Part shown: in pieces, positions 18,218 through 41,423 of the stretch
How positions within the stretch are numbered: the first letter of the stretch is position 1
Layout: every line of letters starts with the position of its first letter
The notes under the pieces: model-generated
The model's database searches: none
What the model saw: the letters and a program-made list of their open reading frames with translations, nothing else
What the model was told of the DNA's origin: nothing
Made by a program: the position numbers and the translations under genes
Origin: a candidate division WOR-3 bacterium
Lineage (GTDB): Bacteria > Hydrothermota > Hydrothermia > Hydrothermales > JAJRUZ01
Direction of reading: 5' to 3'
NCBI GenBank assembly: GCA_039803925.1
Contig: JBDRZL010000003.1
Span: forward strand, 67,855 to 131,854
DNA: 64,000 bases

Positions 18218-18599
18218 AAAAAGAATTTTAATTGTAGAAGATGAAAAATTGCTCGGGATGACTCTTTATGATATACTCTTTTCAGCAACAGGAACTTTTG
18301 AAGTTGTTCTCTGTGAAACTGCTGAAGAGGGATTAGAGAAGATAAAGGAAAAAAAGTTTGACCTTATAGTTTCAGATTTAAAACTTCCCGGGCATATGAA
18401 TGGGATGGATCTTCTGAAGGCTGCAAAAGAAATAAGCCCTGATACTCATCTGATTTTGATGACTGCTTATGGTTCAGATGCTGTAAGAAAGGAGGCTGAA
18501 AATATTGGTGTTGAGGCATACTTTGAAAAACCTTTTAAACTGAAAGAGTTTCTCTCAAGAGTTCTTAAAATTCTCGGGGTTGAAATAAAAAAGGAGTGA
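18207..18599 (+). CDS. Single-domain response regulator (CheY-like receiver).
   Basis: ILIVEDE...LIVSDLKLPG (phospho-acceptor Asp)...LMTAYG...YFEKPF. 130 aa. Confidence 0.8.
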   Translation: MKPEKRILIVEDEKLLGMTLYDILFSATGTFEVVLCETAEEGLEKIKEKKFDLIVSDLKLPGHMNGMDLLKAAKEISPDTHLILMTAYGSDAVRKEAENIGVEAYFEKPFKLKEFLSRVLKILGVEIKKE

Positions 18600-18602
18600 A
18601 AA

Positions 18603-18905
18603 ATGGCACTTATAGGTGATTTAAGAGATGTAAAAATTGAAGATATCTTAAAGTTTATAAAAAGGCTTTCCAAATCCGGTAAACTGATTATAGATGGTGC
18701 CACAAGAAAAGGTGAGATATATTTTACAAAGGGAATGATTGTTGCTGTTAAGAAACAGGGAGAAAGCATAAAAAAGGAATATCTTGAACAGGAGGTTCTT
18801 GAACTTTTAAGACAGGAGGAAGGAACTTTTACCCTTGAACCAACAGAAGAACAGATGGATACTGTCTCTTTTATTGACCCAGATGAGGTTATTTTGAAAT
18901 TGTAA
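18603..18905 (+). CDS. DUF4388 / PATAN-domain protein.
   Basis: MALIGDLRDVKIEDILKFI...SGKLII matches the start of DUF4388 (GxL.dfsL.DvLQ...sG.L). Confidence 0.55.
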   Translation: MALIGDLRDVKIEDILKFIKRLSKSGKLIIDGATRKGEIYFTKGMIVAVKKQGESIKKEYLEQEVLELLRQEEGTFTLEPTEEQMDTVSFIDPDEVILKL

Positions 18906-18910
18906 AGGAA

Positions 18911-19324
18911 ATTTTTACAATTGGACATTCAAACAGAAAGATAGATGAGTTTATTGACATACTTTTATTTTATAAGATTAAAAACCTCATTGATATTAGA
19001 AGATTTCCTTCATCTAAAAAATTTTTTTGGTTTAACAAAGAAAACCTTGAAAAAGAGCTTAAAAAACATAATATACTATATTTCTGGCTTGGTGAGGAGT
19101 TAGGTGGATTTAGAAGAAGAGGTTATGAAAATTATATGAATACTCAGAATTATAAGTTAGGAATTGAAAAACTTATTGATATATCAAGGGAAAGGTCATG
19201 TATTATGTGTGCTGAGAAATTATTTTTTAGATGTCACAGAAAATTTTTATCTAAGACCCTTAAAGAATTAAATTATAAAGTTATACATATAATGGATAAG
19301 AATAAATTTTTTGAATTCAAATGA
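18911..19324 (+). CDS. DUF488-family protein. No canonical start codon (possible ATT start or pseudogene).
   Basis: The frame reads IFTIGHSNRKIDEFIDIL...WLGEELGGFR..., the DUF488 signature. The frame opens only at 18887 (after a TGA) with no ATG/GTG/TTG before GHSN. The ORF track reports only the C-terminal 62 aa. Confidence 0.45.
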   Translation: MFTIGHSNRKIDEFIDILLFYKIKNLIDIRRFPSSKKFFWFNKENLEKELKKHNILYFWLGEELGGFRRRGYENYMNTQNYKLGIEKLIDISRERSCIMCAEKLFFRCHRKFLSKTLKELNYKVIHIMDKNKFFEFK

Positions 19325-20418
19325 AAATTTTTACAAATGGCGGGGAACTTATTGCCAAGGGAGCAATTGATGCAGGTGTAAGATTTTTTGCAGGTTACCC
19401 CATAACTCCTGCTTCTGTTATATATGAACCAATGATGAGAGATCTCCCAAAAGTGGAAGGTATAGCAGTTGGTGCCTCTGATGAAATTTCTGCAATATCT
19501 TATTGTATTGGTGCCTCTTTAAGAGGTATAAAATCAATGACTGCAACCTCAGGACCTGGATTTTCCCTTATGATAGAATCCCTTTCCTATGCTATTATGT
19601 CTGAAATTCCTATTACAATTGTTCTTGCCCAGAGACTCGGTCCTGCAACAGGTGGTGCTACAACTTCTTCACAGGGAGACCTTTTATTTTCAGCTTTTTC
19701 AAGTTCCGGTAGTTATCCATTGCCTATCATTTCTCCTTCAAGCATAGAAGAGTGTTATGAATTAATAATTCATTCTGTAAATGTTTCTGAATTTCTGAGA
19801 ACACCTGTTGTTTTTTTAACAGAAAAGGAAATAACGATGACAAAAAAGAGTATAGATTTAAACTCCTTAAAAAAACCAGAAGTTTTGGAACGTAAATATT
19901 TTTCCGGAAATGGACAATTTAAGACCTATAATTTTAAAGATTTAAAGGATGTTCCTGATTTTTCACCAGTTGGAGGTAAATTCCTTACCAGGTATACAGG
20001 TAGTGCCCATGATAAAAAAGGTGAGTTAAAAAAAGATGACCCCGAGGTAATTGAAGTTCTTTATCATCTTAAAGAAAAAATATTAAAAAATATTGATAAA
20101 TTTTTATTTTATGAATATTTTGAAAAAAAATCTGATATTTTAATTGTTTCTTATGGTGTAACATCTGAATCTGTAAGAGAGGTAGCAGAATCAAAAAAGG
20201 TAAGTTATTTAATTTTAAAAACTCTTTATCCCTTGAATGAAGAATTTTTAAAATCAATTTTTGGTAGATATAAGAAAATTCTTGTTGTAGAAGAGAATAT
20301 AATGGGTAACCTTTACATTTTGATAAGGCATCTTTTGGGGACAAAGGGTTATTCTTTAACAAAAATAGGTTCTTTAATATCACCAGGAGAAATAAAAAAT
20401 TTTCTTGAGTCAATATGA
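19321..20418 (+). CDS. 2-oxoacid:ferredoxin oxidoreductase alpha subunit (KorA/PorA-like).
   Basis: FAGYPITPAS and TATSGPGFSLM blocks of PFOR domain I, plus a C-terminal transketolase-like domain II. Confidence 0.8.
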   Translation: MKIFTNGGELIAKGAIDAGVRFFAGYPITPASVIYEPMMRDLPKVEGIAVGASDEISAISYCIGASLRGIKSMTATSGPGFSLMIESLSYAIMSEIPITIVLAQRLGPATGGATTSSQGDLLFSAFSSSGSYPLPIISPSSIEECYELIIHSVNVSEFLRTPVVFLTEKEITMTKKSIDLNSLKKPEVLERKYFSGNGQFKTYNFKDLKDVPDFSPVGGKFLTRYTGSAHDKKGELKKDDPEVIEVLYHLKEKILKNIDKFLFYEYFEKKSDILIVSYGVTSESVREVAESKKVSYLILKTLYPLNEEFLKSIFGRYKKILVVEENIMGNLYILIRHLLGTKGYSLTKIGSLISPGEIKNFLESI

Positions 20419-21716
20419 AAGATCTTTTTGAAATTATAGATAAACCGCAGAATTTTCCTTATTGCCCTGGTTGCGGGCATACTTCAATTGATATGGCTCT
20501 TGCAAGGGCAATTTTTGAACTCAATCTTGAAAAGGAAGATGTTTTAATTGTTTCAGATATAGGTTGTGTTGGCCTTGTTGATAAACTTTTTAATGTTCAT
20601 ACTTTACATACCTTGCATGGAAGATCAACAGCTGTTGCATCTGGTGTAAAGATGGTTGATGAAGTTCTTTTTGATAACAAATTAAAAACAATAGTTATGA
20701 TAGGTGATGGAGGAGCAACAATAGGACTTCTTCATCTTGTTGAATCTGCAAAGTTAAATGTTGATATTACAGTTCTTATTCATAACAATTTTCTTTATGG
20801 AATGACAGGTGGTCAGCATTCTGGTTTAACTCCAAAAGAGTTTAAGACCTCAACCACAAGGATAGGTAACCCTTTTGAAGCTTTAAGAATTATTGATATT
20901 CTGAAAAATTCAGGTGCTTCCTTTTATGCAAGAACCTTTTCTCAGGATCCTGATTTAAAAGATATAATAAAAGAAGCTTTATCCCACAGAGGTTTTTCTG
21001 TTATTGAAGTTCTTGAATTATGTACAGGTTATGCCACGAGATATAATGATTTAAAGGGAAGTGATTTAAAGATAATTCTTGAAAATTCAGGTGGAAAAAT
21101 TAAGGAAAAAATTGAAAGGGAAAGTTTTTGTTTTTTGTATAAAAATAAATTTTTTGATAAAAAGGGTGAATTTGAATTTACAGAGATTGAAGTGGAAAAG
21201 AAAATAGAGTTAAAAGATTCACTAAAAATAGTTATAGCAGGTTCAGCAGGTGAAGGGGTTCAGCTTGCTTCTTCTCTTTTATGCATTTCTGCAATTTTAG
21301 GAGGACTAAATTCCACTCAGAAAAATGATAATCCGGTTACAGTTGGAAGCGGTTTTTCTGTTTCAGAAATTATAATAAAGGACGGAGATATAAAATACAC
21401 TGGCATTGAAGAGCCTGATTATCTTATTATTACCAGTATAGATGGTTTAAAAAGGGCAAAAGGTTTTATAGAGAGGTCTAAAAATATAATTATAGATGAA
21501 TCTTTAACTGATAATAAAAATTTTATAAAAGTTCCAGCAAGGAAATATATAAAATTAAGAGGTGGACCCACTTACTTTTCTCTTGGTGTTCTTTTTGGAA
21601 AATTTAATCCTTTTGATTTTGAACTTTATGAGAAAGCTATTTTAAAATATGGAAAGGCTAAAGATGAGACCTTAACCTGTTTTAGAGAAGGATTAAATTT
21701 TGGAAGAAGATTATAG
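20415..21716 (+). CDS. 2-oxoacid:ferredoxin oxidoreductase beta subunit (TPP-binding) fused to a gamma-like domain.
   Basis: CPGCGH and GDGG (MIGDGGATIG) TPP motifs in the N-terminal 250 aa. The C-terminal 180 aa (IAGSAGEGVQLAS...) resemble PFOR domain III (gamma). Confidence 0.75.
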   Translation: MKDLFEIIDKPQNFPYCPGCGHTSIDMALARAIFELNLEKEDVLIVSDIGCVGLVDKLFNVHTLHTLHGRSTAVASGVKMVDEVLFDNKLKTIVMIGDGGATIGLLHLVESAKLNVDITVLIHNNFLYGMTGGQHSGLTPKEFKTSTTRIGNPFEALRIIDILKNSGASFYARTFSQDPDLKDIIKEALSHRGFSVIEVLELCTGYATRYNDLKGSDLKIILENSGGKIKEKIERESFCFLYKNKFFDKKGEFEFTEIEVEKKIELKDSLKIVIAGSAGEGVQLASSLLCISAILGGLNSTQKNDNPVTVGSGFSVSEIIIKDGDIKYTGIEEPDYLIITSIDGLKRAKGFIERSKNIIIDESLTDNKNFIKVPARKYIKLRGGPTYFSLGVLFGKFNPFDFELYEKAILKYGKAKDETLTCFREGLNFGRRL

Positions 21717-21747
21717 GGTTCTAATCCCATTAAAAAAGGGAGTTTTT

Positions 21748-24728
21748 ATGCTTAATTTACTATTAGTAATACTATCATTCTTCACTCCCTCATGGGAGAA
21801 AGTTCCCCCTGACCTTCAGGAAAAACTCAGAAGATCTTCAGAGGATGAAGTGCTGACTGTAATAGTTCTTATGAATCCTTTTCCTGATTATGAGTATTTG
21901 AAAACTATACCTGATATAAAGACAAGAGCAGATTATCTTAAACTTCTTGCATCTGAGTCTCAGAGAGAAATTCTTAACTTTCTATCGCAGAAATCAACTT
22001 CAGATGTAGTTTTATATGAGAGCTACTGGGTATATAATGGAATAAGACTTAAAGCAAAACCAGATGTTATAAAAGAAATCTTACAGAGGGATGATGTATT
22101 AAGAGTTGAACTTGAACCCGAGGTTTTTCTTATAAAACCTGAAAAAGTGGATAATACTCTTAATCCTGAACCTTTAGCTGCTCCTTGGAATATGCAGATG
22201 GTAGGAGCTGATTCAGCCTGGGCTAATGGTTTCAGGGGTGAAGGAGTTATAATAGGGAGTATGGATTCAGGTGTTGACAGAACTCATCCTGCCTTTTCTG
22301 GTGTTACCTTTAAAGGAAGAGATTTTACATCAGATGGAAATCCCTTTTCTGATGGTTGTCAGCATGGAACTCATACGACAGGGACAGCAATAGGAGGGAC
22401 AGGTAATTTTGGACCAAATGATATAGGTGTTGCGCCGAATGTTCCTACTTTTGTTATGGCAAAGATATTTGATAATAGTTGTTATGCCGGTAATATATCA
22501 GGTGGATTTCAATGGATTGCTTCTTTAAAGGCAGATTCAGGATTAAATATCAGGGCAGTTAATAATTCCTGGGGTTCCTGTACACAGACTTCACTTGCTT
22601 ACTGGTCAGCAATTCAGACATGGAGATCTCTTGAAATATTCCCAGTTTTTGCTATTGGAAATAATGCTAATTGTGGAACTTCCTGTACTTCCACAGGAAC
22701 AGCAGGAACACCTGGAAACTATCCAATTGTTATAGGTGTTGGCACAGTGGGTTCAGGAGCCTGTCATGATTGTGTTGGTCAGAGGGGACCTGCTCCTAAT
22801 CAATCCCCCTGGAATAATCCGGCAAACTGGTTTTATCCAACATGGAATTTGTTATAGGTGTTGGAACAGTGGGTTCAGGAGCCTGTCATGATTGTGTTGG
22901 TCAGAGGGGACCTGCTCCTAATCAATCCCCCTGGAATAATCCGGCAAACTGGTTTTATCCAACATGGAATTTATTAAAGCCTGATATAGCAGCACCTGGT
23001 TCAGGGGTTAGGTCATCTGTTCCTGGTGGTGGTTATGCTACATGGGATGGTTCATCAATGGCAACTCCTCATGTTACAGGAGCCCTTGCACTTATATTTC
23101 AGGCTAATCCTACACTTACTGTTGATAGTGCTTATTCTCTGCTTGTAAATACAACTTCAAAACCTAATAACTGTGGATACAGTTATCCAAATGATAGGGT
23201 TGGATGGGGTATTGTTAATGTATGGCATGCAATAAAGACACAACTTGGGCAGCCTGTTGTTACAATAGTTTCCTGGGATACCTCAGGAACTGGTTCTGTT
23301 TGGGATCCTGGTGAAACTGTTATTATTGATTTTGTTGCCAAGAATGTTGGTCAGGATACAGCTCTTACGCTCACAGGGAAATTAAGAACTACGAGTCCCT
23401 ATGTTACAGTTGTGGATTCTCTTGGTGCATGGCCTGATTTGGTTCCCAATCAGAGTGCTCCTAATACTGATAATTTTTCTGCCTATGCTGATCCTGGGGC
23501 ACCTATTGGAACGAATGTGAATTTTGTTCTTTATATTTATGGGTATGATGATAATGGTAATCCTAAAACCTGGACATACTACTTTTCACTTCAAATTGGC
23601 CAACTTGGTTCTACCACTTTTGATATTCCTGCAGGAAATGCTATTTTAACAGTTTCAAATAAAGGTGGGTTTCCTTCAGCAGATGAAGGGGGGAGTATAG
23701 GTCCAGGGACAGGTTTTAAGTGGCCAAAAACTGGTGCTAATCATCTTTATTATGGCTCTTTTGCAATTGGAAACAGTTCCACTTATGTTGTTGATGCTTT
23801 TTACAATGCAAGTGATGTATTTGATAGTGATTTTGCACCAAGGGATGGTTTGTGGTGGGTGAGTCCCTTTGTGGGAGATACTATGGCAAGGTCAGGTTAT
23901 GATGATTTAAGTCACGCAAGTCCTAAAAATATTTATGTAACACAATATGCTTTTGCTTTTTCTCAGACAGGTAATCCTGGGTGTGGTAATGGTGTTCTTG
24001 TTGAGCTTGATTTAATTAACAAGGGATCAAATCAGGTATCAGGGGTTTATGCTGGATTATTTATGGATTTTGATATAAATCCTTATAATCAAAATCAGGG
24101 AAATAAAGATTTAACAAGGAAACTTATTTATATGTATTATGGAAGCACTTATGTTGGTGTTTCACTTCTTGAATCTCAGGCTAATTTTATAGGTAAGTTT
24201 TTACATAATCCAACATATGTTTATCCTACTGGAAGACCGACAGAGACTGATAAGTATCAATTTCTTGCAGGACAGATTGGGAATGATCAGACTTCTGCTG
24301 CTGATGACTGGACAATTGTTGCTTCTTCAGGACCTTTTACACTTAATCCTAATGATACACAGAGGGTTGTTTTTGCCATAGTGGGAGGAAGCAGTCTAAC
24401 GAATTTACAGCAGAATGTTGATGCAATCATAAACTGTTATTCTACACTTGTAAAGGAAACAAAGGTTAATTTAAAAAAGGTTCTCTTTTTGAAGGCTGAA
24501 AGAAATCCTAAAGGTATAAATATAATTTACAGCTTACCATACAACTCAAAAATTACTCTTGATATTGTTGATGTGGCAGGAAGAATAATTAAAAATATTG
24601 AGAAGGGTGAAAGGAATACAGGTTTATACTTTGTAAATCTGAAGAAAGAAGAAGTTGGAAAGGGAGTTTTCTTCCTGAGATTGAAAACCGATAAGGAAAG
24701 TCGCGTTGTTAAATTCCTTAATTACTAA
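21748..24728 (+). pseudogene. S8 subtilisin-like serine protease with a T9SS-type C-terminal domain, disrupted by a 122-bp tandem duplication (reported as two ORFs).
   Basis: Asp (DSGVDRTHPAF), His (HGTHTTGTAIGG) and Asn (NNSWG) motifs are in ORF 21700..22857. Ser (GSSMATPHV) and the CTD are in ORF 22842..24728. The frames join if one copy of the repeat is removed. Likely true start is the ATG at 21748 after AAAAAAGGGAG. Confidence 0.8.
22729..22972 (+). repeat. Two-copy tandem direct repeat with a 122-bp unit (121/122 identical).
   Basis: Copy 1 at 22729-22850 and copy 2 at 22851-22972, read directly. The single C/A difference at unit position 15 is silent. 122 is not divisible by 3, so there is a frameshift and a TAG at 22855-57. 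Confidence 0.9.
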
Positions 24729-24754
24729 AATATAAGAAAAAGAAGTTAAAAGAG

Positions 24755-24779
24755 AGGGGGAGGAAATTACCCTCCCCCT
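24755..24779 (+). terminator. GC-rich stem-loop downstream of the protease gene (AGGGGGAGG-aaattac-CCTCCCCCT).
   Basis: 9-bp perfect stem with a 7-nt loop in AT-rich DNA. The downstream T-tract is weak. Confidence 0.45.
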
Positions 24780-24787
24780 TCATTAAA

Positions 24788-25867
24788 TTGAAGTTTCTTT
24801 TTATTTCTTATTATTTTCCACCAGAATCATTTGCTGCATCTATAAGAGCATATAACTATATTAAATATTTAAAAGATTTTACTGAACCTGTTGTTCTAAC
24901 AAAAAAATTGCCTTCAAAAATTTTAAAAGATAATTCTTTAATAGAGGATTTGATAAATGTAAAAATAGAGAGAGTTTTTGATTACTTAATTTTTTTAAAA
25001 ATGCCTTTAGGAATCAGAAATAAAGGTGGAAGGGAATTAAAAAGATATTTAAGACCATTTTATAAAAGAGCAAAAATGCTTTTAAAGGAAGAAAATTTTA
25101 AATTCATATTTGTTACAATTCCGCCCTTTGAACTTTTAAAAGTTGCTCTATCCCTAAAAAGAAGATTTAATTTACCCCTTATATGTGAGATAAGGGATCC
25201 TGCAGATTTTGAGAGCGGAAAGAAATTTAAAAAATTTATTAAAAATTCAGAAAATATAGTTGATTTATTTATAGGTTCCCATTTTTATGTTTTGAAAAGT
25301 TTTGGTATAAAGGGCTATGTTTTGCATGGAGGCATAATAGAGTTTGAAAGGAGAGCTCATGAGGGATTTAACATAATTTATACAGGAACCCTAAAAAATG
25401 CTATGGAAAGTTTTGTAAGATTTGTGAAGTTTACAGAATCTATTAATTACAATCTTTATCTTTTGGGTCCTGAGGTAAGATTAAAAGATAAAAGAATTAA
25501 AAACATTGGCTATGTGGAATATAAAAATTTAAAAAATTATTTTGAAATTGCAGATTTATTTATAATTTTTAGGGATAGTGATACTAAAAATTATATTCCT
25601 CTTAAATTTTTTGAATATTCTGGAAGTTCTGTTCCTGTTCTTGCTTATTTTAAAAATTTTTCAAATCTTTTTTCTTACCTTGAGAAATATAAAAAAGGTA
25701 AGGGTTTTGTTTGGGGAGAAGAAGATAAAATGCTAAAATTTATTGAAGATATAAAAAAAGGTAAGTTATTTTTTGAAAAAGCTTTTAAACCCTGGAAGGA
25801 TGTTTCTCTTGAGCTTTTAAAGGTAATAAATGAAAAAGTTCTTAACAGGAATAACCGTTTGTTTTAA
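24788..25867 (+). CDS. Glycosyltransferase (GT4-like).
   Basis: The N-terminus FISYYFPPESFAASIRAYNYIKYL resembles the GT4 N-domain. The C-terminal motif was not verified. Confidence 0.45.
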   Translation: MKFLFISYYFPPESFAASIRAYNYIKYLKDFTEPVVLTKKLPSKILKDNSLIEDLINVKIERVFDYLIFLKMPLGIRNKGGRELKRYLRPFYKRAKMLLKEENFKFIFVTIPPFELLKVALSLKRRFNLPLICEIRDPADFESGKKFKKFIKNSENIVDLFIGSHFYVLKSFGIKGYVLHGGIIEFERRAHEGFNIIYTGTLKNAMESFVRFVKFTESINYNLYLLGPEVRLKDKRIKNIGYVEYKNLKNYFEIADLFIIFRDSDTKNYIPLKFFEYSGSSVPVLAYFKNFSNLFSYLEKYKKGKGFVWGEEDKMLKFIEDIKKGKLFFEKAFKPWKDVSLELLKVINEKVLNRNNRLF

Positions 25868-26621
25868 TAGCAGTGAAGTTATAATTAATTTAATTAATTC
25901 CATAAGGAAAATTTTAAATAATGAAATCGAATGGATAATTGTTGATTCAGGTTCAAAGGATAAAACCCCATCAATTTTAAAAAAAATAAAAAATGTTAAA
26001 ATTTTCTTATTTAAAAAAAATATTGGCTTTTCAAAAGGTAATAATTTCGCTTTTAGATTGTCTTTAGGTGAATATGTTTTTTTCTGTAACCCTGACATTT
26101 CTTTTGATAAATCTAACTTTGAAAGAATTATCTATGAATTAAAAAAATATAAACCTCTGATTTTGGTTCCCCTTTTAAGAAAAGATGATAAATATTATTA
26201 TTTTTTAAGAGCCTTACCCTCTATAGAAAATATACTGAGATTCAGATGGCATAAAGGGATAATTAAAAAGGTTGAAAAAATTCAACCTGCTTTTTCTGCA
26301 ATTTTTTTAAAAAGAGAAGTTTTTGAAAAACTTTTTGGTTTTGATGAAAAATTTTTTGTTTATTTTACAGATGTTGAATTTTTTAAAAGATTTTATAATA
26401 AAGGATTTAAAGTTAAGGATATTTATTTTTCAAAAAATTACTTTTCCCACAAGGGTTCATCTATTCTTTTAAGTAGAAAAAATGAATTTTTGAAAAAATT
26501 TGATTTTGCGAGAGGTTTTTTAATTTATTTTTTAAAATATGGGAATTTAATTGAAAAAAATTTTTCTATTTTTTTATTTATTTTTTTGCTTTTAAGGGCT
26601 TTTTATTATTATTTTAAATGA
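25830..26621 (+). CDS. Glycosyltransferase family 2.
   Basis: ITVCFNSS...EWIIVDSGSKDKT (the DxD-preceding GT2 block) and the FFCNPDISF block. Confidence 0.6.
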   Translation: MKKFLTGITVCFNSSEVIINLINSIRKILNNEIEWIIVDSGSKDKTPSILKKIKNVKIFLFKKNIGFSKGNNFAFRLSLGEYVFFCNPDISFDKSNFERIIYELKKYKPLILVPLLRKDDKYYYFLRALPSIENILRFRWHKGIIKKVEKIQPAFSAIFLKREVFEKLFGFDEKFFVYFTDVEFFKRFYNKGFKVKDIYFSKNYFSHKGSSILLSRKNEFLKKFDFARGFLIYFLKYGNLIEKNFSIFLFIFLLLRAFYYYFK

Positions 26622-28842
26622 AGTTTTTTTCTTTTAGGAAATTAAGAATTTCTTCCTCATTCATTTTTACTGGAAAAGTTTTTAAATTAAACCTAATATA
26701 AAAAATAAGTGAATTTGTATTTTTAATTTTCTTATTAATTATCTTAAATTCATTTTCCGCTTTATCAAATTGTTTTGTATGATATAAATATAAAAAATAA
26801 GGTATTCTATAAGTTGTTTGTCTATAAATATTTTCTTTGCAAATTTCAATTGCCTTTTTGAAATATTCCTCTGTTTTCTCATATTCTTCTTTTTTAAAAT
26901 AAATTTTTGCAAGAAGCATATTTTTTTCACTTTCAAGAATTTTTCTTTCTGTCTGTAAGGATAGTGCAATCTCTAAGGCTTTTTCTGTATTGCAATTTAT
27001 AAGATTGTAAAAAGATTCAAAAAGATTCATATCAAAGATAATTTCAGGATCTTTATATTCCTCATAAATTTCTTTTAACTTTTCATTAATTGAGTAAGCT
27101 TCTTCAAAATTCTCCATAAAAACATAGTAATCTCTTAGAACAGTGTAATATGTATTTAAATAGTAATAACTTTTTGATTTTTCAATTGATTTTTTCATTT
27201 CATTTAATGTACTTAAAGCCTTTTCTATGTTTCCAGAATAAAAATAGCTTTGAGATAACCAGCCGAGGGTATAGGCAATTAGGTCTTCATCAGATGTGTG
27301 ACTTAAGGCTTCTTTATAATTTTTTTCAGCAAGTTCATATTCTCCTTTTCTTAGATAAATTGAGGCAAGGTTTGTAAGTAATAGGGAAAGTCCTCTTTTT
27401 GATATTTTAATATTTTTTGCTATTTTTAATGCTTCTTCATAAAATTTTTCTGCTTCTTCTAAATTTTCCTTCATTGAATTAATTGCTCCGAGTAGATTAT
27501 TTAAGCGATAAAGAATTCTTTTTTCGATTTTTTCTTTATAGAAAAGGCCATTATAGGCATTTTTTTCTGCTTCTTCATAATTACTTAAATAGTATAATCC
27601 GGCTCCTTTCAGATAGTAATAAACACCCAAGTATAAAGGTTCCAGTTTATTTATATCAATTTTTTCAATCTCCTTCAGAGTTTCTTCAAATTTATGTTCT
27701 AAGAGATAGATCTGTGCTCTGATTAATATTATAAGGAAGTTCTGACGGATTTCTTCTGGTAATTTATCGAGAATTGGTTCTATTTCAAGGACTCTATTTG
27801 TTTCGAGTATATCTAAGAATTTTTTATTTAAAATATCAAGAATTTTTGAATAAAATTTTAGTTTTTCAAGATAAAAGAGTGCCTGGAAAAAATCTTCCTT
27901 TTCAAGGTAATATTCAATGGCGTTGTCAAGTATCCATTTTTTTAGCAATAGTCCCTTTGGGCTTTTTTCAAGTTCCTTTTGAAGGTATTCTCTGAAAAGG
28001 GGATTTAAGTAATAGTAGTCACCAGCTTTTTCTACAAAAAGGAATTTTTTAGTTATTTCATCAATAAATTTTTCTGGTTCTTTCAATCCAAAAATTCTTT
28101 CAAGGTCTTCTTTTTTAAATCTTTCAAGACAGGAAATTCCCATAACTAAGCTTTTTTTATCTGGTTCAAGAGACATAAATTTTTCTTTTAAAATATTTTC
28201 AATATAATCTGATTCTATTTTTTCTGGTATTATATTTTTAGATAAATACTCTGATAAGAAGATTCTTGTAAAAAGTCCATGTCCGCCAGTTTTTGACAAA
28301 ATTTTCTCAATATCTTTTTTTTTGAAAGTTATATTATTCTTTATTAAAAAATCAATTACTTCTTCCTCGGTTAAAAGGAGATAGTTTCTATCAATCCTTT
28401 CTGTTTGGGTTTCAAGAGGTGTTTTTATTTCTTCTCTTGTTTCTATTAAAAAGCTTATTTCAGGGTTTGAATTTATACTTATATTCCATAATAAACTTTC
28501 AGTTTCAGACCCCTTTATTTCTTCAAATCTCTCAAATATAAAAAGTTTAATTTTTTTTTCTTCTCTGAAAAAATTAATAAGTGAATTTTTCATTCCCTCT
28601 AAGCTTTCCGCTTCACCTCTTATGAATTTTTCACTAAGTCTTCTAAGGAAATAAGCTGGTTTTTCGTCTTCCTTTGTTAAAACAAATCTTTCATAAGGAA
28701 TTTTTGTTTCTAAAGTAAATTTCTCTATTAATTCACTTTTTAAAAGCCCTGGTTCTCCGCAGATTATTATATATTTTTTCCCTATGCTACTCTTTAATTT
28801 ATTTAATGCTTTTAAGGGAATAAGATCTTTAATTACTTCCAC
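26614..28842 (-). CDS. STAND/MalT-like protein with a degenerate P-loop and C-terminal TPR repeats. No DNA-binding domain.
   Basis: N-terminus IIICGEPGLLKSE (GxPGxxKS where GxPGxGKT/S is expected), then a Walker-B-like LFIFERFEE, then about 450 aa of TPR-like repeats (YYxLGxxYxxxGxYEEAxxxY pattern). Confidence 0.55.
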   Translation of the reverse strand: MEVIKDLIPLKALNKLKSSIGKKYIIICGEPGLLKSELIEKFTLETKIPYERFVLTKEDEKPAYFLRRLSEKFIRGEAESLEGMKNSLINFFREEKKIKLFIFERFEEIKGSETESLLWNISINSNPEISFLIETREEIKTPLETQTERIDRNYLLLTEEEVIDFLIKNNITFKKKDIEKILSKTGGHGLFTRIFLSEYLSKNIIPEKIESDYIENILKEKFMSLEPDKKSLVMGISCLERFKKEDLERIFGLKEPEKFIDEITKKFLFVEKAGDYYYLNPLFREYLQKELEKSPKGLLLKKWILDNAIEYYLEKEDFFQALFYLEKLKFYSKILDILNKKFLDILETNRVLEIEPILDKLPEEIRQNFLIILIRAQIYLLEHKFEETLKEIEKIDINKLEPLYLGVYYYLKGAGLYYLSNYEEAEKNAYNGLFYKEKIEKRILYRLNNLLGAINSMKENLEEAEKFYEEALKIAKNIKISKRGLSLLLTNLASIYLRKGEYELAEKNYKEALSHTSDEDLIAYTLGWLSQSYFYSGNIEKALSTLNEMKKSIEKSKSYYYLNTYYTVLRDYYVFMENFEEAYSINEKLKEIYEEYKDPEIIFDMNLFESFYNLINCNTEKALEIALSLQTERKILESEKNMLLAKIYFKKEEYEKTEEYFKKAIEICKENIYRQTTYRIPYFLYLYHTKQFDKAENEFKIINKKIKNTNSLIFYIRFNLKTFPVKMNEEEILNFLKEKNFI

Positions 28843-28851
28843 CTATAAATT

Positions 28852-29955
28852 TTATTTTTTTTGATTTAAAATTTTCAATATAAAGGTTAAAATAGGTAAA
28901 AAAATCAATATAGAAAGATATAAGTAGTTTATTTTTTCAGTATAAATAAAAATACTTTTACTTGATAAAAAATTTAAAAGAAAAAAAATTGTTTTTTTTG
29001 TTATCTCTGTAAAAATTAAAAATCTTTCTGTCAAAAATCCAAAAGGTGAAATTAAACTTATTATTCCTCCAAGTATAGATAAAAAAATAAGGGGTGAGAG
29101 AATAATATTTGATAATGGAGCAATAAGTGAAATATTTTTGAAAAAAAAGTAAATATAAGGAAAAACAAATAGCTGTGCAGAAAGTGAAACAGAAAAGGGA
29201 AGGTATAAGAAGTTTCTTAAAAAATAGTTTTTAATTTTCATTTTGTTAAAAAGGGGGAATAAAACTATTATTCCTGTTGTTGCAAGATAGGATAGATGAA
29301 AGCCTGGGTCAAAAGCGCTTTCAGGGAAAAATGTAAGGGATAAAAGTCCAGCATTTCCCAGAATAGAAAGTGGATGTACCTTTATATTTAAAGAAAAAGT
29401 TAAAAGAAAAGATACTATCATTATATAGGATCTCAAAACAGAAGGTCTTAATGGAATAATTGATGTATAAAAAGTGAGTCCTAAAACTGAAAGTATCATC
29501 GCCTTTTTAAAGTTTAGTCTTAAAAAAATAAAAAAGAAAATAAAAATAGATGCTATTATTGCCATATGAAGACCTGAAATAGCAAGAAAGTGAAGTGTTC
29601 CTGTTTTTATAAATTTTTTTAAATTTTCTTTATTTAATTTGCTTCTTTCACCTAATAAAAGGGTAAGTAAGAATTCCTTTGTTTCCGATTCAAAGTTTTT
29701 TTCTATTTTGTTTTTAAAGTATTTGTTTAAATTTTTTAGCAAAATAGGATAATTCAAATTTTTACTTTCTTTTTCATTTAAATAAAAATGCAGACTTCCA
29801 AGTGGAATAAAGGTTAAATATTTAAATGGTGAAATTAAAAATATTAAAAAAACTAAAATACTCAAAAAAAAATTTTTAATGTTTTTACCTAAAATTATTC
29901 CAGAAAAAAAGAGTATAAAGATAATAAAACTTGGGTATTTTTTAAATATTTGCAT
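28852..29955 (-). CDS. ComEC/Rec2-family competence-domain membrane protein (short form).
   Basis: LLLGERSKLNKENLKKFIKTGTLHFLAISGLHMAIIAS matches the ComEC competence-domain signature (...G..HLLAISGLHV...). Polytopic. No C-terminal MBL domain. Confidence 0.6.
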   Translation of the reverse strand: MQIFKKYPSFIIFILFFSGIILGKNIKNFFLSILVFLIFLISPFKYLTFIPLGSLHFYLNEKESKNLNYPILLKNLNKYFKNKIEKNFESETKEFLLTLLLGERSKLNKENLKKFIKTGTLHFLAISGLHMAIIASIFIFFFIFLRLNFKKAMILSVLGLTFYTSIIPLRPSVLRSYIMIVSFLLTFSLNIKVHPLSILGNAGLLSLTFFPESAFDPGFHLSYLATTGIIVLFPLFNKMKIKNYFLRNFLYLPFSVSLSAQLFVFPYIYFFFKNISLIAPLSNIILSPLIFLSILGGIISLISPFGFLTERFLIFTEITKKTIFFLLNFLSSKSIFIYTEKINYLYLSILIFLPILTFILKILNQKK

Positions 29956-33965: not shown

Positions 33966-35459
33966 ATGAAGGAGTATTTAAATTACATTGATGGTAAATG
34001 GAAACCTTCAAAGTCAGGGAAGTTTTTTGAAAATAGAAATCCTGCAAACTGGGATGAAGTTATTGGAATTTTCCCTAAATCAGTAAGAGAAGATGTAGAA
34101 GAAGCTGTTTTAGCTGCAAAAAAGGCTTTTAAGATGTGGTCAAAAGTTCCAGCACCTAAGAGAGCTGAAGTAATGAGAAAAGCTGCTCAAATTCTTCTTG
34201 AAAGAAAAGAAGAAGTTGCTAAACTTCTTGCAAGGGAAAATGGAAAGATAATGAAGGAGGCAAGAGGTGATGTACAGGAAGGAATTGATACTGCTTTCTA
34301 TGCCTTTGGAGAAGGAAGAAGACTATTCTCTTATAACACTCCCTCAGAACTTCCTGATAAATTTGCTTTGACATTCAGAATGCCTGTTGGTGTTTTTGCT
34401 GTTATAACACCATGGAATTTTCCAATTGCTCTTCCTGCATGGAAAATTTTCCCTGCTCTTTTAGCAGGTAATACTCTTGTTTTTAAACCACCTTCTGATG
34501 CTCCAGCCTGTGCTTACGAACTTGTTAAGATTTTAGAAGAAGCAGGAGCACCTCCTGGTGTTATAAATCTTGTATTCGGAGGAGGTAGTGAAGTTGGAGA
34601 AATTTTACTTTCTCATCCTGATATAAGGGGTGTTGCTTTTACTGGTTCTTCAGAAGTAGGTTCTAGAATAGCAGAGGTTGCTGGAAAAAATCTTAAGAAA
34701 GTTTCCCTTGAACTTGGTGGTAAGAATGCCCAAATTGTCATGCCTGATGCAAATCTTGAACTTGCCCTTGAAGGAGCCTTATGGGGAGCTTATGCAACAG
34801 CAGGTCAGAGATGCACTGCTACATCAAGGATAATTGTTCATCAGGATATTTATGATAAGTTTATTGAGATGTTTGTGGAGAGAGCAAAGCTTTTAAAAAT
34901 CGGAAACCCTCTTGATGAAAGAACTGAAATGGGTCCTGTTATTAATGAAGCTCAGAGGAATAAGATTCATTCATATGTAGAAATTGGTAATAAGGAAGGT
35001 GCAAAACTTATTCTTGGTGGAGAACCTTTAAAGGGAGATGAATATGATAAAGGTTTCTTTTATAAACCTACTGTATTTAAAGATGCTGAACCTTCTATGA
35101 GGATCTGTCAGGAAGAGATATTTGGACCTGTTGTTGCTTTTATAAAGGCTAAAAATCTTGATGAGGCTATTGATATATTAAATGGAACAAAATATGGTCT
35201 TTCTTCTTCAATTTATACACAGGATATAAATAATGCAATGAAAGCAATAGAGAAGATTGAAGCTGGTATTACTTATGTAAATGGACCAACAATAGGAGCA
35301 GAGTGTCATCTTCCCTTTGGAGGAATAAAGGCTACTGGTAATGGACACAGGGAAGGCGGGTGGACGGTTTATGATATTTTTACAGAGATAAAAACAGTTT
35401 ATATAGATTATTCAGGAAAACTTCAAAAAGCTCAGATTGATACATGGGAAAATAAATAA
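33966..35459 (+). CDS. NAD(P)-dependent aldehyde dehydrogenase.
   Basis: The ALDH glutamate and cysteine active-site blocks are present (LELGGKNA and ...GQRCTATSR). Confidence 0.85.
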   Translation: MKEYLNYIDGKWKPSKSGKFFENRNPANWDEVIGIFPKSVREDVEEAVLAAKKAFKMWSKVPAPKRAEVMRKAAQILLERKEEVAKLLARENGKIMKEARGDVQEGIDTAFYAFGEGRRLFSYNTPSELPDKFALTFRMPVGVFAVITPWNFPIALPAWKIFPALLAGNTLVFKPPSDAPACAYELVKILEEAGAPPGVINLVFGGGSEVGEILLSHPDIRGVAFTGSSEVGSRIAEVAGKNLKKVSLELGGKNAQIVMPDANLELALEGALWGAYATAGQRCTATSRIIVHQDIYDKFIEMFVERAKLLKIGNPLDERTEMGPVINEAQRNKIHSYVEIGNKEGAKLILGGEPLKGDEYDKGFFYKPTVFKDAEPSMRICQEEIFGPVVAFIKAKNLDEAIDILNGTKYGLSSSIYTQDINNAMKAIEKIEAGITYVNGPTIGAECHLPFGGIKATGNGHREGGWTVYDIFTEIKTVYIDYSGKLQKAQIDTWENK

Positions 35460-35587: not shown

Positions 35588-38443
35588 ATGTTTAAATTTT
35601 TATTAATAATATGGGGGTTAACTCCCCCCTCTTTACCTTTTGAGGGTAAAATAACACCCTCACTAAGAGAAAAATTAAAATCTCTTTTACAGAATGATAG
35701 AATACATGTTGTTGTCCATCTTTCTGATATTTATCCCTATGAAGAAATAGAGATTCTTTCAACAGAAGAAAAAGTTCGGTTTTTTAAGGAATATTCCAAA
35801 AATTCTCAGTCAAAAGTAATAAAATGGCTTGAAGATAATTTTAAGGGTGAATATGAAATTTTAATGCAGAATTTTGCTTATAATGGTTTTCATATGGAGG
35901 CTACTAAAAAAGTTATTTATGCACTTGAAAAAAATGATGATATCTGGTTTATAGATGAAAATCGCGAGGTAAAGATAATATACACAAAAACTGAAAAGGA
36001 TAATACCTATCCAGCAGCTATTGAGTGGAATGTTTCAAAGGTTAAAGCTGATTCCTGCTGGTATGCTGGTTATAATGGACAGGATGTTATAATAGGTCAT
36101 ATTGATACAGGGGTAGAGGTATCTCATCCTGCTCTTTCAGGTAAATGGGTTACAGGTTACTGGTTTGATGGTGTAAATGGAAATCCTAATCCATATGATG
36201 ATAACGGACATGGAACCCATACAATGGGAACTATTCTCGGAGGAGATGGTCCTGGTCCTTTTACAGAAGATATAGGAGTTGCTCCTGGTGCGAAATTTGT
36301 TACAGCCAAGGCTTTTACTTCTGGCGGTTCTGGAAATTATGCAACTATAGACCCATGTATGGACTCAATGGTTTCGTGGAAAGCAAGGGTTGATATAAGG
36401 GCTGTTTCAAACTCATGGGGAGGTTCTGGAACTGATACCCACTGGTGGCAGGTTGTTTATACTTGGCTTTCCCTTGGTATGCTTCCTGTTTTTGCAGCAG
36501 GAAATGAAGGATTTTCTGGTCTAAGAGCCCCTGGAAGTTATCCCCATAATTTATGTGTTGGTGCAACTGATATAAATGATAATATTGCAAGTTTTTCAAG
36601 TAGAGGACCAGCACCAAATCAATCGCCTTGGAATGATACAACCTATTGGTTAAGAAATGACTGGAACTTTATTAAACCACAGATAAGCGCACCTGGGGTA
36701 AATGTTCGGTCCTCTGTTCCAGGTGGGGGTTATGGAGCCTTGAATGGAACTTCAATGGCAACTCCCCATGTAGCCGGTGCAGTTGCAATTATTGTTCAAA
36801 AAAATAATCTGCTTACACCAAAACAGATATACAGTTTAATAATTGATTATCCTGACAAACCTACTCAGGGTTCACCTTATCCAAATAATAATTATGGATG
36901 GGGTAGATTGAATATATGGAAAGCCTTAAAAAATACTCCTTTACCGAATAGACCCTCTATTTTATTTTCAAGGTATAGAGTTGATGATGAAAATGGTAAT
37001 GGAAACGGTATATTTGACCCGGGTGAAACTGTAAATCTTTTTATTACATTGAGAAATATAGGTATTAATGCCACAAATGTAAACGCTGTTTTAAAAACTT
37101 CAGACTCATATGTTAGTGTTTTAGACTCAACTGCACTTTATCCTGATATGCCTGCAGAAAGTTCAAAGGTAAACATTGATCCTTTTGTTGTGACATCTTC
37201 ACCTTCAACTCCACTGGGATATCAGGCTCCCATGGTTCTTAAAATAAATTCCAATGATTCTATCTATGATTTCAGAAATTTCAATTTGAAGGTTGGACTT
37301 ATACCAGTTCTTTACGGAAATCATGATGTTGGTGAAATTTTGCTAACAGTCACAGCTCTTGGAGCAATAGGATTTACAAATAGTAACCAGAATGAAGGTA
37401 GTGGACTTCATTATCCTAAAAATAGTCAAAATTATCTTAAAATTGGTTCAATCTGGGCTGGTAATTCAAATACCTATGTCTTAAACACAGACTATTCAGC
37501 TGATAACGCAGATTGGATGTATTTACCAAATGGATTATTACAGATAGGAGCCACTAAATATTCAGATCAGGATGCAAGTGCAAGGTATGATGATTCAGGA
37601 CACCCCAATTCAAGAGGTGTTGAGGTGCATCAGGAAAGTTTTGCCTGGGCCCTTCCACCCTATAACGATTTTATAATTTTTAAATACACAATAAAAAATA
37701 ACTGGAATTACGATTTGATTGATTTTTACTCAGGAATGTTTCTTGATATTGATATAAGTCCAAATTCTGATACAGGTGGAAGAGATCTTGGAAGGAAAGC
37801 TATTTATTTAAGTAATGGTAACCCTACTCATAACAAATGTCTTGGAATTGCACTTCTTGAACCACAGAACCCGAGAAATATAACATTTATACAGAATTCC
37901 GTTTATGTTGACCCTAATGGCTATATCACGGATGCCTATAAATTTCAATTTCTTAAGGGTTTAATTGGAATTCCTAATACATACCAGAAGGATAACTGGT
38001 CTACTCTTATTTCAGCGGGTCCATTTACAATCCCTTCAGGTGATAGTATTGTTTTAGCATTTGCTGTTGTTGCAGGTGATAGTCTTTTTGATTTTCAGGG
38101 AAATGCTGATACTGCAAGAGATGTCTGGAATGGATTAAGTATTAGAGAAAAACCTGTTTCCTTTATTTATTCAAATAGTCCTTATATCATATCAACTTTT
38201 GGTTTAAAAAATAATGAATTAAAACTTTTTGTTCCTCACTCAGGTAAATATTATGTTTCAATTTATAACCAAACAGGTAGAAGACTCGGTAAAACCTTTA
38301 AATTTTATGAAAAAGAGGGAATTTATACCCTTTCACTTTCAGAAATTATTTCAAAATCAAATAAACTATCCAAGGGCACTTACTTTATAAAACTTAGCTC
38401 GAATTCAAGGGACTTTTTAGGTAAGTTTATTATATTTAAATGA
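35588..38443 (+). CDS. S8 subtilisin-like serine protease with a T9SS-type C-terminal sorting domain (intact paralog of 21748..24728).
   Basis: Asp (GHIDTGVEVSHPAL), His (HGTHTMGTILGG), Asn (SNSWGG) and Ser (GTSMATPHVAGA) motifs. Signal peptide. RBS AAGAAGGAGG. Confidence 0.85.
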   Translation: MFKFLLIIWGLTPPSLPFEGKITPSLREKLKSLLQNDRIHVVVHLSDIYPYEEIEILSTEEKVRFFKEYSKNSQSKVIKWLEDNFKGEYEILMQNFAYNGFHMEATKKVIYALEKNDDIWFIDENREVKIIYTKTEKDNTYPAAIEWNVSKVKADSCWYAGYNGQDVIIGHIDTGVEVSHPALSGKWVTGYWFDGVNGNPNPYDDNGHGTHTMGTILGGDGPGPFTEDIGVAPGAKFVTAKAFTSGGSGNYATIDPCMDSMVSWKARVDIRAVSNSWGGSGTDTHWWQVVYTWLSLGMLPVFAAGNEGFSGLRAPGSYPHNLCVGATDINDNIASFSSRGPAPNQSPWNDTTYWLRNDWNFIKPQISAPGVNVRSSVPGGGYGALNGTSMATPHVAGAVAIIVQKNNLLTPKQIYSLIIDYPDKPTQGSPYPNNNYGWGRLNIWKALKNTPLPNRPSILFSRYRVDDENGNGNGIFDPGETVNLFITLRNIGINATNVNAVLKTSDSYVSVLDSTALYPDMPAESSKVNIDPFVVTSSPSTPLGYQAPMVLKINSNDSIYDFRNFNLKVGLIPVLYGNHDVGEILLTVTALGAIGFTNSNQNEGSGLHYPKNSQNYLKIGSIWAGNSNTYVLNTDYSADNADWMYLPNGLLQIGATKYSDQDASARYDDSGHPNSRGVEVHQESFAWALPPYNDFIIFKYTIKNNWNYDLIDFYSGMFLDIDISPNSDTGGRDLGRKAIYLSNGNPTHNKCLGIALLEPQNPRNITFIQNSVYVDPNGYITDAYKFQFLKGLIGIPNTYQKDNWSTLISAGPFTIPSGDSIVLAFAVVAGDSLFDFQGNADTARDVWNGLSIREKPVSFIYSNSPYIISTFGLKNNELKLFVPHSGKYYVSIYNQTGRRLGKTFKFYEKEGIYTLSLSEIISKSNKLSKGTYFIKLSSNSRDFLGKFIIFK

Positions 38444-38489
38444 AAGTTAATGAAGGGTTTAATCCCCTGAAAAAATAAGGAGGAAAAGC

Positions 38490-41423
38490 ATGAGGAGTCT
38501 CATTTTAGCCCTTTTAGTAGCAGGGCTTATAGCTGGCGAAGGTGTTACAGTAAAAACAGGTTCTTTACCTACCTCTAAAAAAGATGAACTTTTAAAAGCA
38601 GGTGCCTCTCTACTTCAAAATGGAAAACCTTCAGAGGTTTATAAAAATCTTTTAAAGATTCCTCTATGGGATGTTGTTGATTCCTTCCCTGCTCCAGGTT
38701 TATATCACATGGGTCTTGGATTTGATGGGACTTACCTTTATAATGTTTCAAATGCAACTACCCCTGTTATAGTTTATGTTATTGATCCCTCAACCGGTAA
38801 TGTGGTTAATCAGTGGCAACTTTCAAGTAGCGGTTATTGTCTTGGAATCACATATTTTCAGGGTTATTTATGGATAGCTGATTATAGCTATGGATACATA
38901 TATAAATACCAGACAAATGGAACCTATGTTCAAACATATTCTTCACCTGTTGGATCATATATAAGGGGTCTTACAAATGATAATAATTATTTATGGCTTG
39001 CAAGTGTTGGTGGTGGGGTTGGATTAGGCTCTCTTGTTCAATGGGATCCTTCCAACAATCAGATTATTAGAACTGTAAGTGTTGGAAGCATTATTGATTG
39101 GCCAATGGATATAAGTTATGATTCAAGAACAGGAAATATGTGGGTTAATGATGATAATGGAGCTTCTGCTGAGATAAATGAGGTTGATATTTCAGGCTCA
39201 AACGGTGTAATTGTGGCTCAGTATGCTCCACCCGGGGGTTACGGTCTTATTCCAGAGGGTATAGTTTTTGATGGTGGCACTTATATATACTATACTGCCT
39301 TTTATGCCTCTTATATATGGAAAATATTGGCAGCCACTTTCAATAACGATGTCAGCACCTATCAAATAATATCACCTTCCTCAACTACTCTGCCCTATAC
39401 TCCTACTGATATTAAAGCTATAGTTAAAAATATAGGTCAAACAAATGCAGGTAGTTTTAATGTTTATTGTGTTGTTGAATCTCTCGGTGTCCAGGTTTAC
39501 TCTTCATCTCAAACAATACCTTCTCTTTCTGCTGGAGCATCTGATACTATTACTTTTTCTCCACAGTGGACACCATCAGAATTTACTTATGAGATAATTG
39601 TATGGCACGATTATGCTGATGATTTTGCCGGGGATGACACTTTGACAAAACAAGTTAAAGCTTCTTCAGGTGAATGGATATGTTATAATGATGGAGTGAT
39701 GGCAAATGCTTGGGCATTTTATGCTGCTGGTAATGCATGGGGACACAGAATTTCCCCAGCAACATATCCTTATTATGTAGATACAGTTAAAGTTTATATT
39801 CTATCAGAAGGAGACCCTTACTGGCCATGGCCTGATGCAACCCATCAGAATTTCCAGATTTCTGTATTTGATGAAAATGCAGGTTATCCTGGAAATGAAA
39901 TTTTTGTTGATACCGTGAATGTTACAACAGACTCACTTGACCCTTCAGGCTCAAGGTCCTGGGTTTATGCTTTTCCAAAAGTAAAGATTAATTCAGGAGA
40001 TTTCTGGATAGGTCATGTTCAGCTTTATCCTTATCCTGGAACAGAGGGTCAGGGTGTGGATGCTTCTCTTAATTATCCATCAAGAACTTGGGCAAGAATT
40101 GGAGGAACCTGGCAGCAGTATGCACTTTCTGGAGATCTTATGATGTGTGCCTTTGTAAGATATCCTTATGCACATGATGTTGGAGTATTTAGTATTGAAA
40201 AACCAAAACCCTTTGCTCCTGCCTATTCTTCAATTCAGATTCAGGCCAAGATAGTTAATGAAGGATTAAATACAGAAAGTTTTAATGTGGAAGCCAAAAT
40301 AGACTCTGCTGGTTTTACTGTATATGCTGATACTGTTCCTGTAAATAACTTAATCAGTGACGACACTGTGCTTGTAAGTTTTGCTCCTTTCACTACTGGT
40401 GCTAATAACCTCAATTATACTCTCACTATAAAAACCCTTCTTCCAACTGATGTAAAACCTACAAATAATTTTAAGTCTCTTTCCTTTACAACAGTGGAAG
40501 TTCCAAGATTTATTACTGTTCCTGTTTCTCAGGTTATGCCAATTATTGATGGATTTATTGATACTTTGAGTGAATGGAATGATGCTATAAAACTTGATGC
40601 CTCAGATGTATTTCAGATGCATGGATTACTTAATCCCCCTGGTTCTGCTTTCATTTATTTAAAATACGATGGTGATTATCTCTATGCAGCTGTGAGAGCT
40701 CCCTTTGATATGACAAGAACTCAATTTGATAGAATATTCCTTTATTTTGATGATAATAACGATGGTCAATTTCCTCCTCCAGGTATTAAAAAAGAAGGTA
40801 GAGTTGCCCTCTATTATACTTCAATTCTTGATATAGCAGCTTTCACACCTATTTTTGTAGATAGAACACTTGGACAGACAAAAAGCGTTGGATTCCCTTG
40901 TGCTTCTGCTATGCCTCTTGGTTACGAACAGTATGAAATTGCTATCCCTTTTGGGTCCCTTGATGAGGAGCTGGATGTTTCTTTCCCTGACACTGTTGGA
41001 TTTTTCTTCCAAGTAGGTGATACTTTTGCTAATAAAATAGAATATGGAGGATGGTTCCCTCAGGATAATGATAGCATAAGGGTCCCGTCCTATTATACAA
41101 AACTTATTTTCCCTGTTGTTGCTGTCAAAGAAGGTAAAAAGCCAATTAATATAAAAGAAAGACTTGAACTTGCTCTTAATATTCCCAATTCAATTTCTAA
41201 AAATCCTGAAATTAATTTTACAATTCCATATGCTTCCCCTGTGAAGATAAATCTTTACAATGTAAATGGTGTAAAAGTTGCAAATCTAATTGATAACAAA
41301 TTTATGACACCAGGTAAATATAGTGTAAAGATTGATAGAGACAAACTTTCTTCAGGTGTATACTTCATAAGACTTGAAACAAATACAAAAGATATCACAA
41401 AGAAACTTGTATTTGTGAAATAA
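38490..41423 (+). CDS. Large secreted multi-domain protein (repeat N-terminal region, CARDB/Ig-like domains, CBM9/DOMON-like region) with a T9SS-type C-terminal domain.
   Basis: Signal peptide MRSLILALLVAGLIAG. C-terminus INFTIPYASPVKINLYNVNGVKVANLID...GVYFIRLETNTKDITKKLVFVK fits the Por_Secre_tail pattern. RBS AAGGAGG. Confidence 0.6.
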   Translation: MRSLILALLVAGLIAGEGVTVKTGSLPTSKKDELLKAGASLLQNGKPSEVYKNLLKIPLWDVVDSFPAPGLYHMGLGFDGTYLYNVSNATTPVIVYVIDPSTGNVVNQWQLSSSGYCLGITYFQGYLWIADYSYGYIYKYQTNGTYVQTYSSPVGSYIRGLTNDNNYLWLASVGGGVGLGSLVQWDPSNNQIIRTVSVGSIIDWPMDISYDSRTGNMWVNDDNGASAEINEVDISGSNGVIVAQYAPPGGYGLIPEGIVFDGGTYIYYTAFYASYIWKILAATFNNDVSTYQIISPSSTTLPYTPTDIKAIVKNIGQTNAGSFNVYCVVESLGVQVYSSSQTIPSLSAGASDTITFSPQWTPSEFTYEIIVWHDYADDFAGDDTLTKQVKASSGEWICYNDGVMANAWAFYAAGNAWGHRISPATYPYYVDTVKVYILSEGDPYWPWPDATHQNFQISVFDENAGYPGNEIFVDTVNVTTDSLDPSGSRSWVYAFPKVKINSGDFWIGHVQLYPYPGTEGQGVDASLNYPSRTWARIGGTWQQYALSGDLMMCAFVRYPYAHDVGVFSIEKPKPFAPAYSSIQIQAKIVNEGLNTESFNVEAKIDSAGFTVYADTVPVNNLISDDTVLVSFAPFTTGANNLNYTLTIKTLLPTDVKPTNNFKSLSFTTVEVPRFITVPVSQVMPIIDGFIDTLSEWNDAIKLDASDVFQMHGLLNPPGSAFIYLKYDGDYLYAAVRAPFDMTRTQFDRIFLYFDDNNDGQFPPPGIKKEGRVALYYTSILDIAAFTPIFVDRTLGQTKSVGFPCASAMPLGYEQYEIAIPFGSLDEELDVSFPDTVGFFFQVGDTFANKIEYGGWFPQDNDSIRVPSYYTKLIFPVVAVKEGKKPINIKERLELALNIPNSISKNPEINFTIPYASPVKINLYNVNGVKVANLIDNKFMTPGKYSVKIDRDKLSSGVYFIRLETNTKDITKKLVFVK

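Follow-up and report, generated by a model that had tools for sequence, protein, structure and literature searches.

We found that the gene of a secreted S8 family protease in the assembled genome of an uncultured, hot-spring-type bacterium of candidate division WOR-3 is split into two ORFs by a head-to-tail 122-bp duplication, located at positions 22729 to 22972 of the 64,000-nucleotide stretch of DNA that was analysed (hereafter the window). On the sequence evidence, this duplication is best read as probably a local mis-assembly or a chimeric consensus of co-existing strains, and most likely it is not present in the dominant genome of the sample. The true gene would then encode an intact secreted subtilase of 968 amino acids that ends in a T9SS type A sorting tail. 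A preliminary description of the window had posed the question as one between a real mutation and an assembly artefact, which proved to be the correct frame for it.

The duplication and the split protease gene

By direct comparison, copy 1 of the unit (22729 to 22850, forward strand) and copy 2 (22851 to 22972, same strand) are equal at 121 of 122 positions. The sole mismatch is C at 22743 versus A at 22865, which gives the codons GGC and GGA and leaves Gly in each copy's frame; the single silent C/A change of the preliminary description was thus confirmed. TRF reported the repeat in the window with a period of 122, 2.0 copies, 98% matches and a score of 486. The period-122 identity begins at 22727, two nucleotides ('TT') before 22729, and copy 1 may equally be taken to begin there. 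This leaves an uncertainty of 2 nt in the register of the repeat and limits junction microhomology to 2 bp. The junction across the two copies reads CCAACATGGAATTT followed by GTTATAGGTGTTGG (junction string CCAACATGGAATTTGTTATAGGTGTTGG), and the wild-type, single-copy joints at the edges of the unit are CCAATTGTTATAGG and GGAATTTATTAAAGCC. There is no N at the junction or elsewhere in the window. No second long near-perfect repeat was found within the 64 kb, and TRF over 139.8 kb of related loci gave no tandem repeats and nothing comparable, so the 122-bp repeat is not a matter of chance. Neither tRNA genes nor Rfam families at gathering score were found in the window (1 to 64000), and RNA elements and integration sites hence play no part.

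ORF1 (21700 to 22857, forward strand) encodes 385 amino acid residues from TTG 21700, and is annotated at NCBI as a 369-residue protein from ATG 21748 (MEO0283980.1). Besides a signal peptide and propeptide region, it encodes the N-terminal two thirds of the S8 domain; it crosses copy 1 and meets its stop codon TAG (22855-22857) five bases into copy 2, in keeping with the earlier remark that the unit is not divisible by 3 and that the upstream frame stops at this TAG. ORF2 (22842 to 24728, forward strand; 628 residues; MEO0283981.1) contains the C-terminal third of the S8 domain, a middle region of about 430 residues and the T9SS C-terminal sorting domain (about 24516 to 24716). It had been described as restarting inside copy 2. 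Its ATG (22842-22844) is instead located at the end of copy 1, and copy 2 is read in the codon phase that ORF1 has in copy 1. Neither a signal peptide of ORF2 nor a Shine-Dalgarno motif upstream of its ATG was found, unlike the neighbours starting at 33966, 35588 and 38490, which have strong Shine-Dalgarno signals. MEO0283980.1 and MEO0283981.1 are encoded on a single contig of 145,637 bp and match ORF1 (from ATG 21748) and ORF2, respectively, without a difference; the window is thus part of that MAG, and in GenBank the split gene appears as two separate proteins.

The start of the protease differs between records. TTG 21700, which gives 968 residues, implies a 17-nt overlap with the upstream oxidoreductase gene. 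The alternative, ATG 21748, gives 952 residues, with AAAAAGGGAG just before it and a hydrophobic signal sequence directly after it. From this arrangement ATG 21748 looks the more plausible of the two.

When either copy was deleted in silico, a single 968-residue ORF was obtained, as had been expected in the preliminary description. PF00082 spans the join in the reconstituted protein, and the residues Asp, His, Asn and Ser stand in the order that had been claimed. In the window the catalytic Asp (22264-22266), the catalytic His (22363-22365) and the oxyanion Asn (22660-22662) are in ORF1 and the catalytic Ser (23055-23057) is in ORF2. As assembled, therefore, Asp, His and Ser are not found in order on one polypeptide; they are after removal of a copy and in all relatives. 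The 40 duplicated residues, VIGVGTVGSGACHDCVGQRGPAPNQSPWNNPANWFYPTWNL, are located between the oxyanion Asn and the catalytic Ser. Each half matched PF00082 by itself, ORF1 with 71.2 bits (profile positions 1 to 180) and ORF2 with 62.1 bits (profile positions 195 to 288), against a gathering cut-off of 21.8. The reconstituted protein matched subtilisins in the PDB at E about 1e-25 and shares 98% identity with MEO0305702.1, a 968-residue 'S8 family peptidase' from a candidate division WOR-3 MAG, and thousands of full-length homologues were obtained in the protein search. An intact paralogous S8 protease (35588 to 38443, forward strand; 951 residues) has one copy of the segment and served as a control for colinearity. 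The two proteins aligned end to end with 34% identity (E 1e-150), which bears out the colinearity proposed earlier.

The sorting tail scored 29.3 bits against NCBIfam TIGR04183 (T9SS type A sorting domain; cut-off 23) and 17.8 bits against Pfam PF18962, under its threshold of 27. From these matches we consider the protease, with moderate confidence, to be a predicted T9SS type A cargo. With PF00082 and TIGR04183 both above cut-off, the reconstituted protein resembles the S8 subtilases with a T9SS type A tail in other WOR-3/Hydrothermae MAGs. Unlike in those proteins, the domain in the window is divided over two ORFs, neither of which has a complete catalytic triad.

Copy number in relatives and the C/A site

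The comparison with orthologous loci that the preliminary description had proposed was made with six further assemblies from the species cluster in which the site is covered. All six have a single copy of the unit and an intact gene of 952 to 970 residues. Five of them share 99.2 to 99.9% identity with the window: the Logan assembly of SRR21619498 (99.9%; here L003), that of SRR21619490 (99.6%), GCA_039803845.1 (99.6%; L002), GCA_039803905.1 (99.3 to 99.8%; L004) and GCA_039803785.1 (99.2%). The sixth, GCA_039804025.1, is about 94% identical. Every other non-truncated member of the 90% protein cluster also has 952 to 970 residues. Among the 129 homologues that match the 40-residue unit (132 were fetched), none has a second copy of it; each matches once. 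On these comparisons the duplication is a feature of one assembly and not of the lineage. The junction string had no exact match in genome or metagenome contig collections. A string internal to the unit was equally absent from them, so this negative shows just that the species is unrepresented there at exact match.

Position 22743 is polymorphic among the relatives. It is C in SRR21619490, L002, L003, GCA_039803785.1 and GCA_039804025.1, and A in L004, a single-copy relative that thus has the same allele as copy 2. Since C and A segregate in the population, the two copies of the window hold two natural alleles. Such a pair is as expected if the sequences of two co-existing strains were stitched together. 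If the unit had been duplicated within one genome, the copies would have been born identical, and a later mutation must then have struck exactly 22743 and given the other natural allele; otherwise, one would have to invoke recombination with another strain or a mixing of alleles by the assembler. The one-nucleotide difference had been taken in the preliminary description as a weak argument that the duplication is real, an argument that is reversed by the segregation of this site.

In a table of variable sites the window resembles L003 at most positions and L004 in short patches (22675-22677, 22865 and 24739/24742), and a few patches are private. This pattern fits a recombinant, or a consensus that may have been built from a strain mixture.

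Across 19016 to 27241 of the window, mosaic SNP patterns were seen among the six relatives of 94 to 99.9% identity, including private triplets at 22434/22446/22449 and 26129/26132/26133. They suggest that co-existing strains often recombine, that the consensus sequences are chimeric, or both. Close by, at 28852 to 29955, is a ComEC-like competence gene. Over the 9 kb compared, the density of strain SNPs peaks at 21671 to 22816, in the 5' half of the protease gene. Microdiversity seems to be concentrated in this gene, and diversifying selection on a secreted or surface protease could be the reason.

In the same neighbourhood, the gene model of one interval is unsettled. At 18941 to 19324 (7242 to 7625 of L002) the sister MAGs carry an NCBI DUF488 protein of 127 to 141 residues, the Logan gene calls give just 62 residues, and a 153-residue ORF is found on the opposite strand at 18467 to 18928. 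Exact look-ups with ORF1, ORF2, the paralog and a neighbouring glycosyltransferase gave no entry.

Assembly evidence and competing explanations

An independent Logan contig (k=31) of SRR21619498 corresponds to window positions 6609 to 34054, with 15 base differences in 27 kb. Thirteen of the 15 fall into five micro-clusters (22434/22446/22449, 22675-22677, 22865, 24739/24742 and 26129/26132/26133), a pattern that would be expected from alternative choices at strain bubbles. The contig, from a run that may be the source of the MAG, goes unbroken through a single copy of the unit. In a k=31 graph, a duplication junction present at full depth should make the path fork at the unit and break the contig. 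The junction is therefore absent or rare in SRR21619498.

Four other assemblies (two NCBI MAGs and two Logan runs) have contig ends in the 5' half of the protease gene. These are located at 22047 (GCA_039803885.1), at about 22274 (a contig of SRR21619491, placed from its record coordinates), at 22526 (SRR27730045) and at about 22584 (the partial protein P0127). They mark this half of the gene as a strain-variable trouble spot for assembly. An anomaly that is confined to one assembly and lies 150 to 700 bases from four contig breaks looks like a local assembly error.

In the reading that we favour, the sampled population would hold at least two co-existing haplotypes, with C or A at 22743. Two sequence ends with a 122-bp overlap, differing at this SNP, were probably laid end to end instead of being merged. 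The step responsible would be one of assembly, scaffolding, gap closing or re-assembly, which we infer from the product. Equivalently, a repeat or loop may have been walked one time too many. The outcome would be a seamless tandem duplication in which each copy carries one allele. The usual maximum k values of assemblers are 99, 127 and 141. The period of 122 differs from the overlap expected at these values, which counts against an artefact, and a simple k-mer overlap artefact was rejected because the copies differ by a SNP and 122 equals neither a usual k nor k-1. A pure de Bruijn graph assembler outputs just the k-mers that are present in the reads and cannot invent a junction k-mer, and a microhomology of 2 bp offers no repeat by which the graph could be misled. 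An artefact therefore has to come from chimeric reads or from a stage after the graph (scaffolding, gap closing or merging).

Where metagenome assemblers go wrong locally, they commonly duplicate sequence at scaffold joins or miscount repeats (Chen et al. 2020, Genome Res, PMC7111523). The window shares with such errors (PMC7111523) a short near-exact duplicate of flanking sequence at a single point, in a strain-variable region where other assemblies stop, and a broken gene that is intact in all the others; its copies differ at a population-polymorphic site alone. In the documented form, however, the duplicate at a scaffold join normally has Ns between the copies (PMC7111523), whereas the join in the window is seamless, which counts against the artefact; support from reads is the defining criterion of this class of error. 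No source paper for the MAG accessions or SRA runs was found in the literature, and hence no assembly pipeline for the MAG. A 2025 mSystems paper on WOR-3 was rejected as the source, its genomes having been deposited in CNSA/ENA.

A serious, though less likely, rival reading is that the duplication is real, a very recent event in one strain or sub-population that inactivates the protease by frameshift and that may be revertible. Replication slippage or illegitimate recombination at the 2-bp microhomology would have produced it, and the C/A pair would come from later recombination with another strain or from an assembler mixing the alleles of co-existing strains. The seamless junction speaks for such an event, given that graph assemblers normally emit read k-mers alone, and the undamaged remainder of the gene is consistent with a very young lesion. 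The protease is also highly polymorphic among strains and may face diversifying selection that tolerates loss or switching. Against this, the duplication is present in only one of the seven assemblies that cover the site, and the near-identical SRR21619498 contig has a single copy and is unbroken. The copies differ at the one site of the unit at which L003 and L004 differ, which within a single genome would be a coincidence unless recombination or allele mixing is invoked. The absence of the junction string from the genome and metagenome collections also stands against it, with the internal string of the unit absent there too. If the duplication is nevertheless real, the protease is knocked out, because ORF1 lacks the Ser and the sorting tail and ORF2 lacks the signal peptide, the Asp, the His and a Shine-Dalgarno motif. 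The copies are 122-bp direct repeats, so a precise deletion would restore the gene.

Phase variation by tandem duplication is an established mechanism, known from cap3A in the type 3 capsule locus of Streptococcus pneumoniae (Waite et al. 2001, as cited in PMC11163986). According to that citation, the gene is turned off when about a hundred bases within it are duplicated in tandem, and the precise loss of a copy turns it on. The duplication in the window is of the same kind, disrupting the frame within a gene (122 is not a multiple of 3) and being revertible by precise deletion. A real duplication might then represent one position of a RecA-type switch by which an uncultured thermophilic WOR-3 bacterium turns a T9SS-secreted subtilase reversibly on and off, an idea to which we give little credence. 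Gain and loss of the 122-bp copy would toggle a protease that is costly or exposed to phages or predators at the surface, and the C/A pair would record recombination between strains. For cap3A, many independent duplications and reversions are cited as having been seen experimentally, whereas the WOR-3 case is one instance in one assembly without recurrence. No other duplication of the gene was found in the relatives or homologues (six assemblies with a single copy; 0 of 129 homologues duplicated), so there is no sign of recurrent switching. It is more improbable still that the two-ORF arrangement is functional, either through a programmed -1 ribosomal frameshift that would yield a protease with a 40-residue internal repeat or as an active enzyme in two pieces. 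ORF2 does lie in the -1 frame with respect to ORF1, and since its frame is open from 22818 the two overlap over 38 nt. However, no slippery heptamer of the form X_XXY_YYZ was found in 22818 to 22855, the ATG of ORF2 has no Shine-Dalgarno motif, and the two-frame arrangement is conserved in no relative. In the alignment to PDB subtilases the repeated segment takes in a core strand together with the loop that precedes the Ser helix, so that a 40-residue repeat would probably disrupt folding, and ORF2, having no signal peptide, could not be expected to reach the T9SS. Programmed frameshifting and a functional split enzyme were rejected for want of a slippery heptamer and of conservation.

Other secreted proteins and implications

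Several further large secreted proteins are encoded in the window. The S8 paralog at 35588 to 38443 has a weak match to Por_Secre_tail, and it is followed by a 977-residue CARDB protein (38490 to 41423) whose Por_Secre_tail match is above cut-off. An 884-residue Met-zincin (DUF4953/DUF5117/DUF5118) is encoded at 44425 to 47079. The G+C content of the protease genes is 0.41 (22001 to 24000) and 0.36 to 0.37 (36001 to 40000), as compared with 0.24 to 0.33 in the remaining window. This could reflect an amino acid composition rich in Gly, Pro and Thr, or a foreign origin. The suggestion that the split gene encodes a virulence protease found no support: the bacterium is an environmental member of WOR-3, and the window encodes several T9SS-tailed secreted hydrolases, this protein among them.

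The duplication is thus primarily a flag on data quality. MEO0283980.1 and MEO0283981.1 most likely represent one intact 968-residue secreted protease, and if the split is left uncorrected, counts of pseudogenes, of the protease repertoire and of T9SS cargo in WOR-3 genomes would err. Should the duplication be true, it would be an ordinary young loss-of-function allele. Clear heterogeneity between the two states, if it exists among the reads, would make it a modest example of phase variation by duplication in an uncultured phylum. Taken with the split gene, the clustered large secreted proteins suggest a T9SS-dependent, extracellular proteolytic lifestyle.
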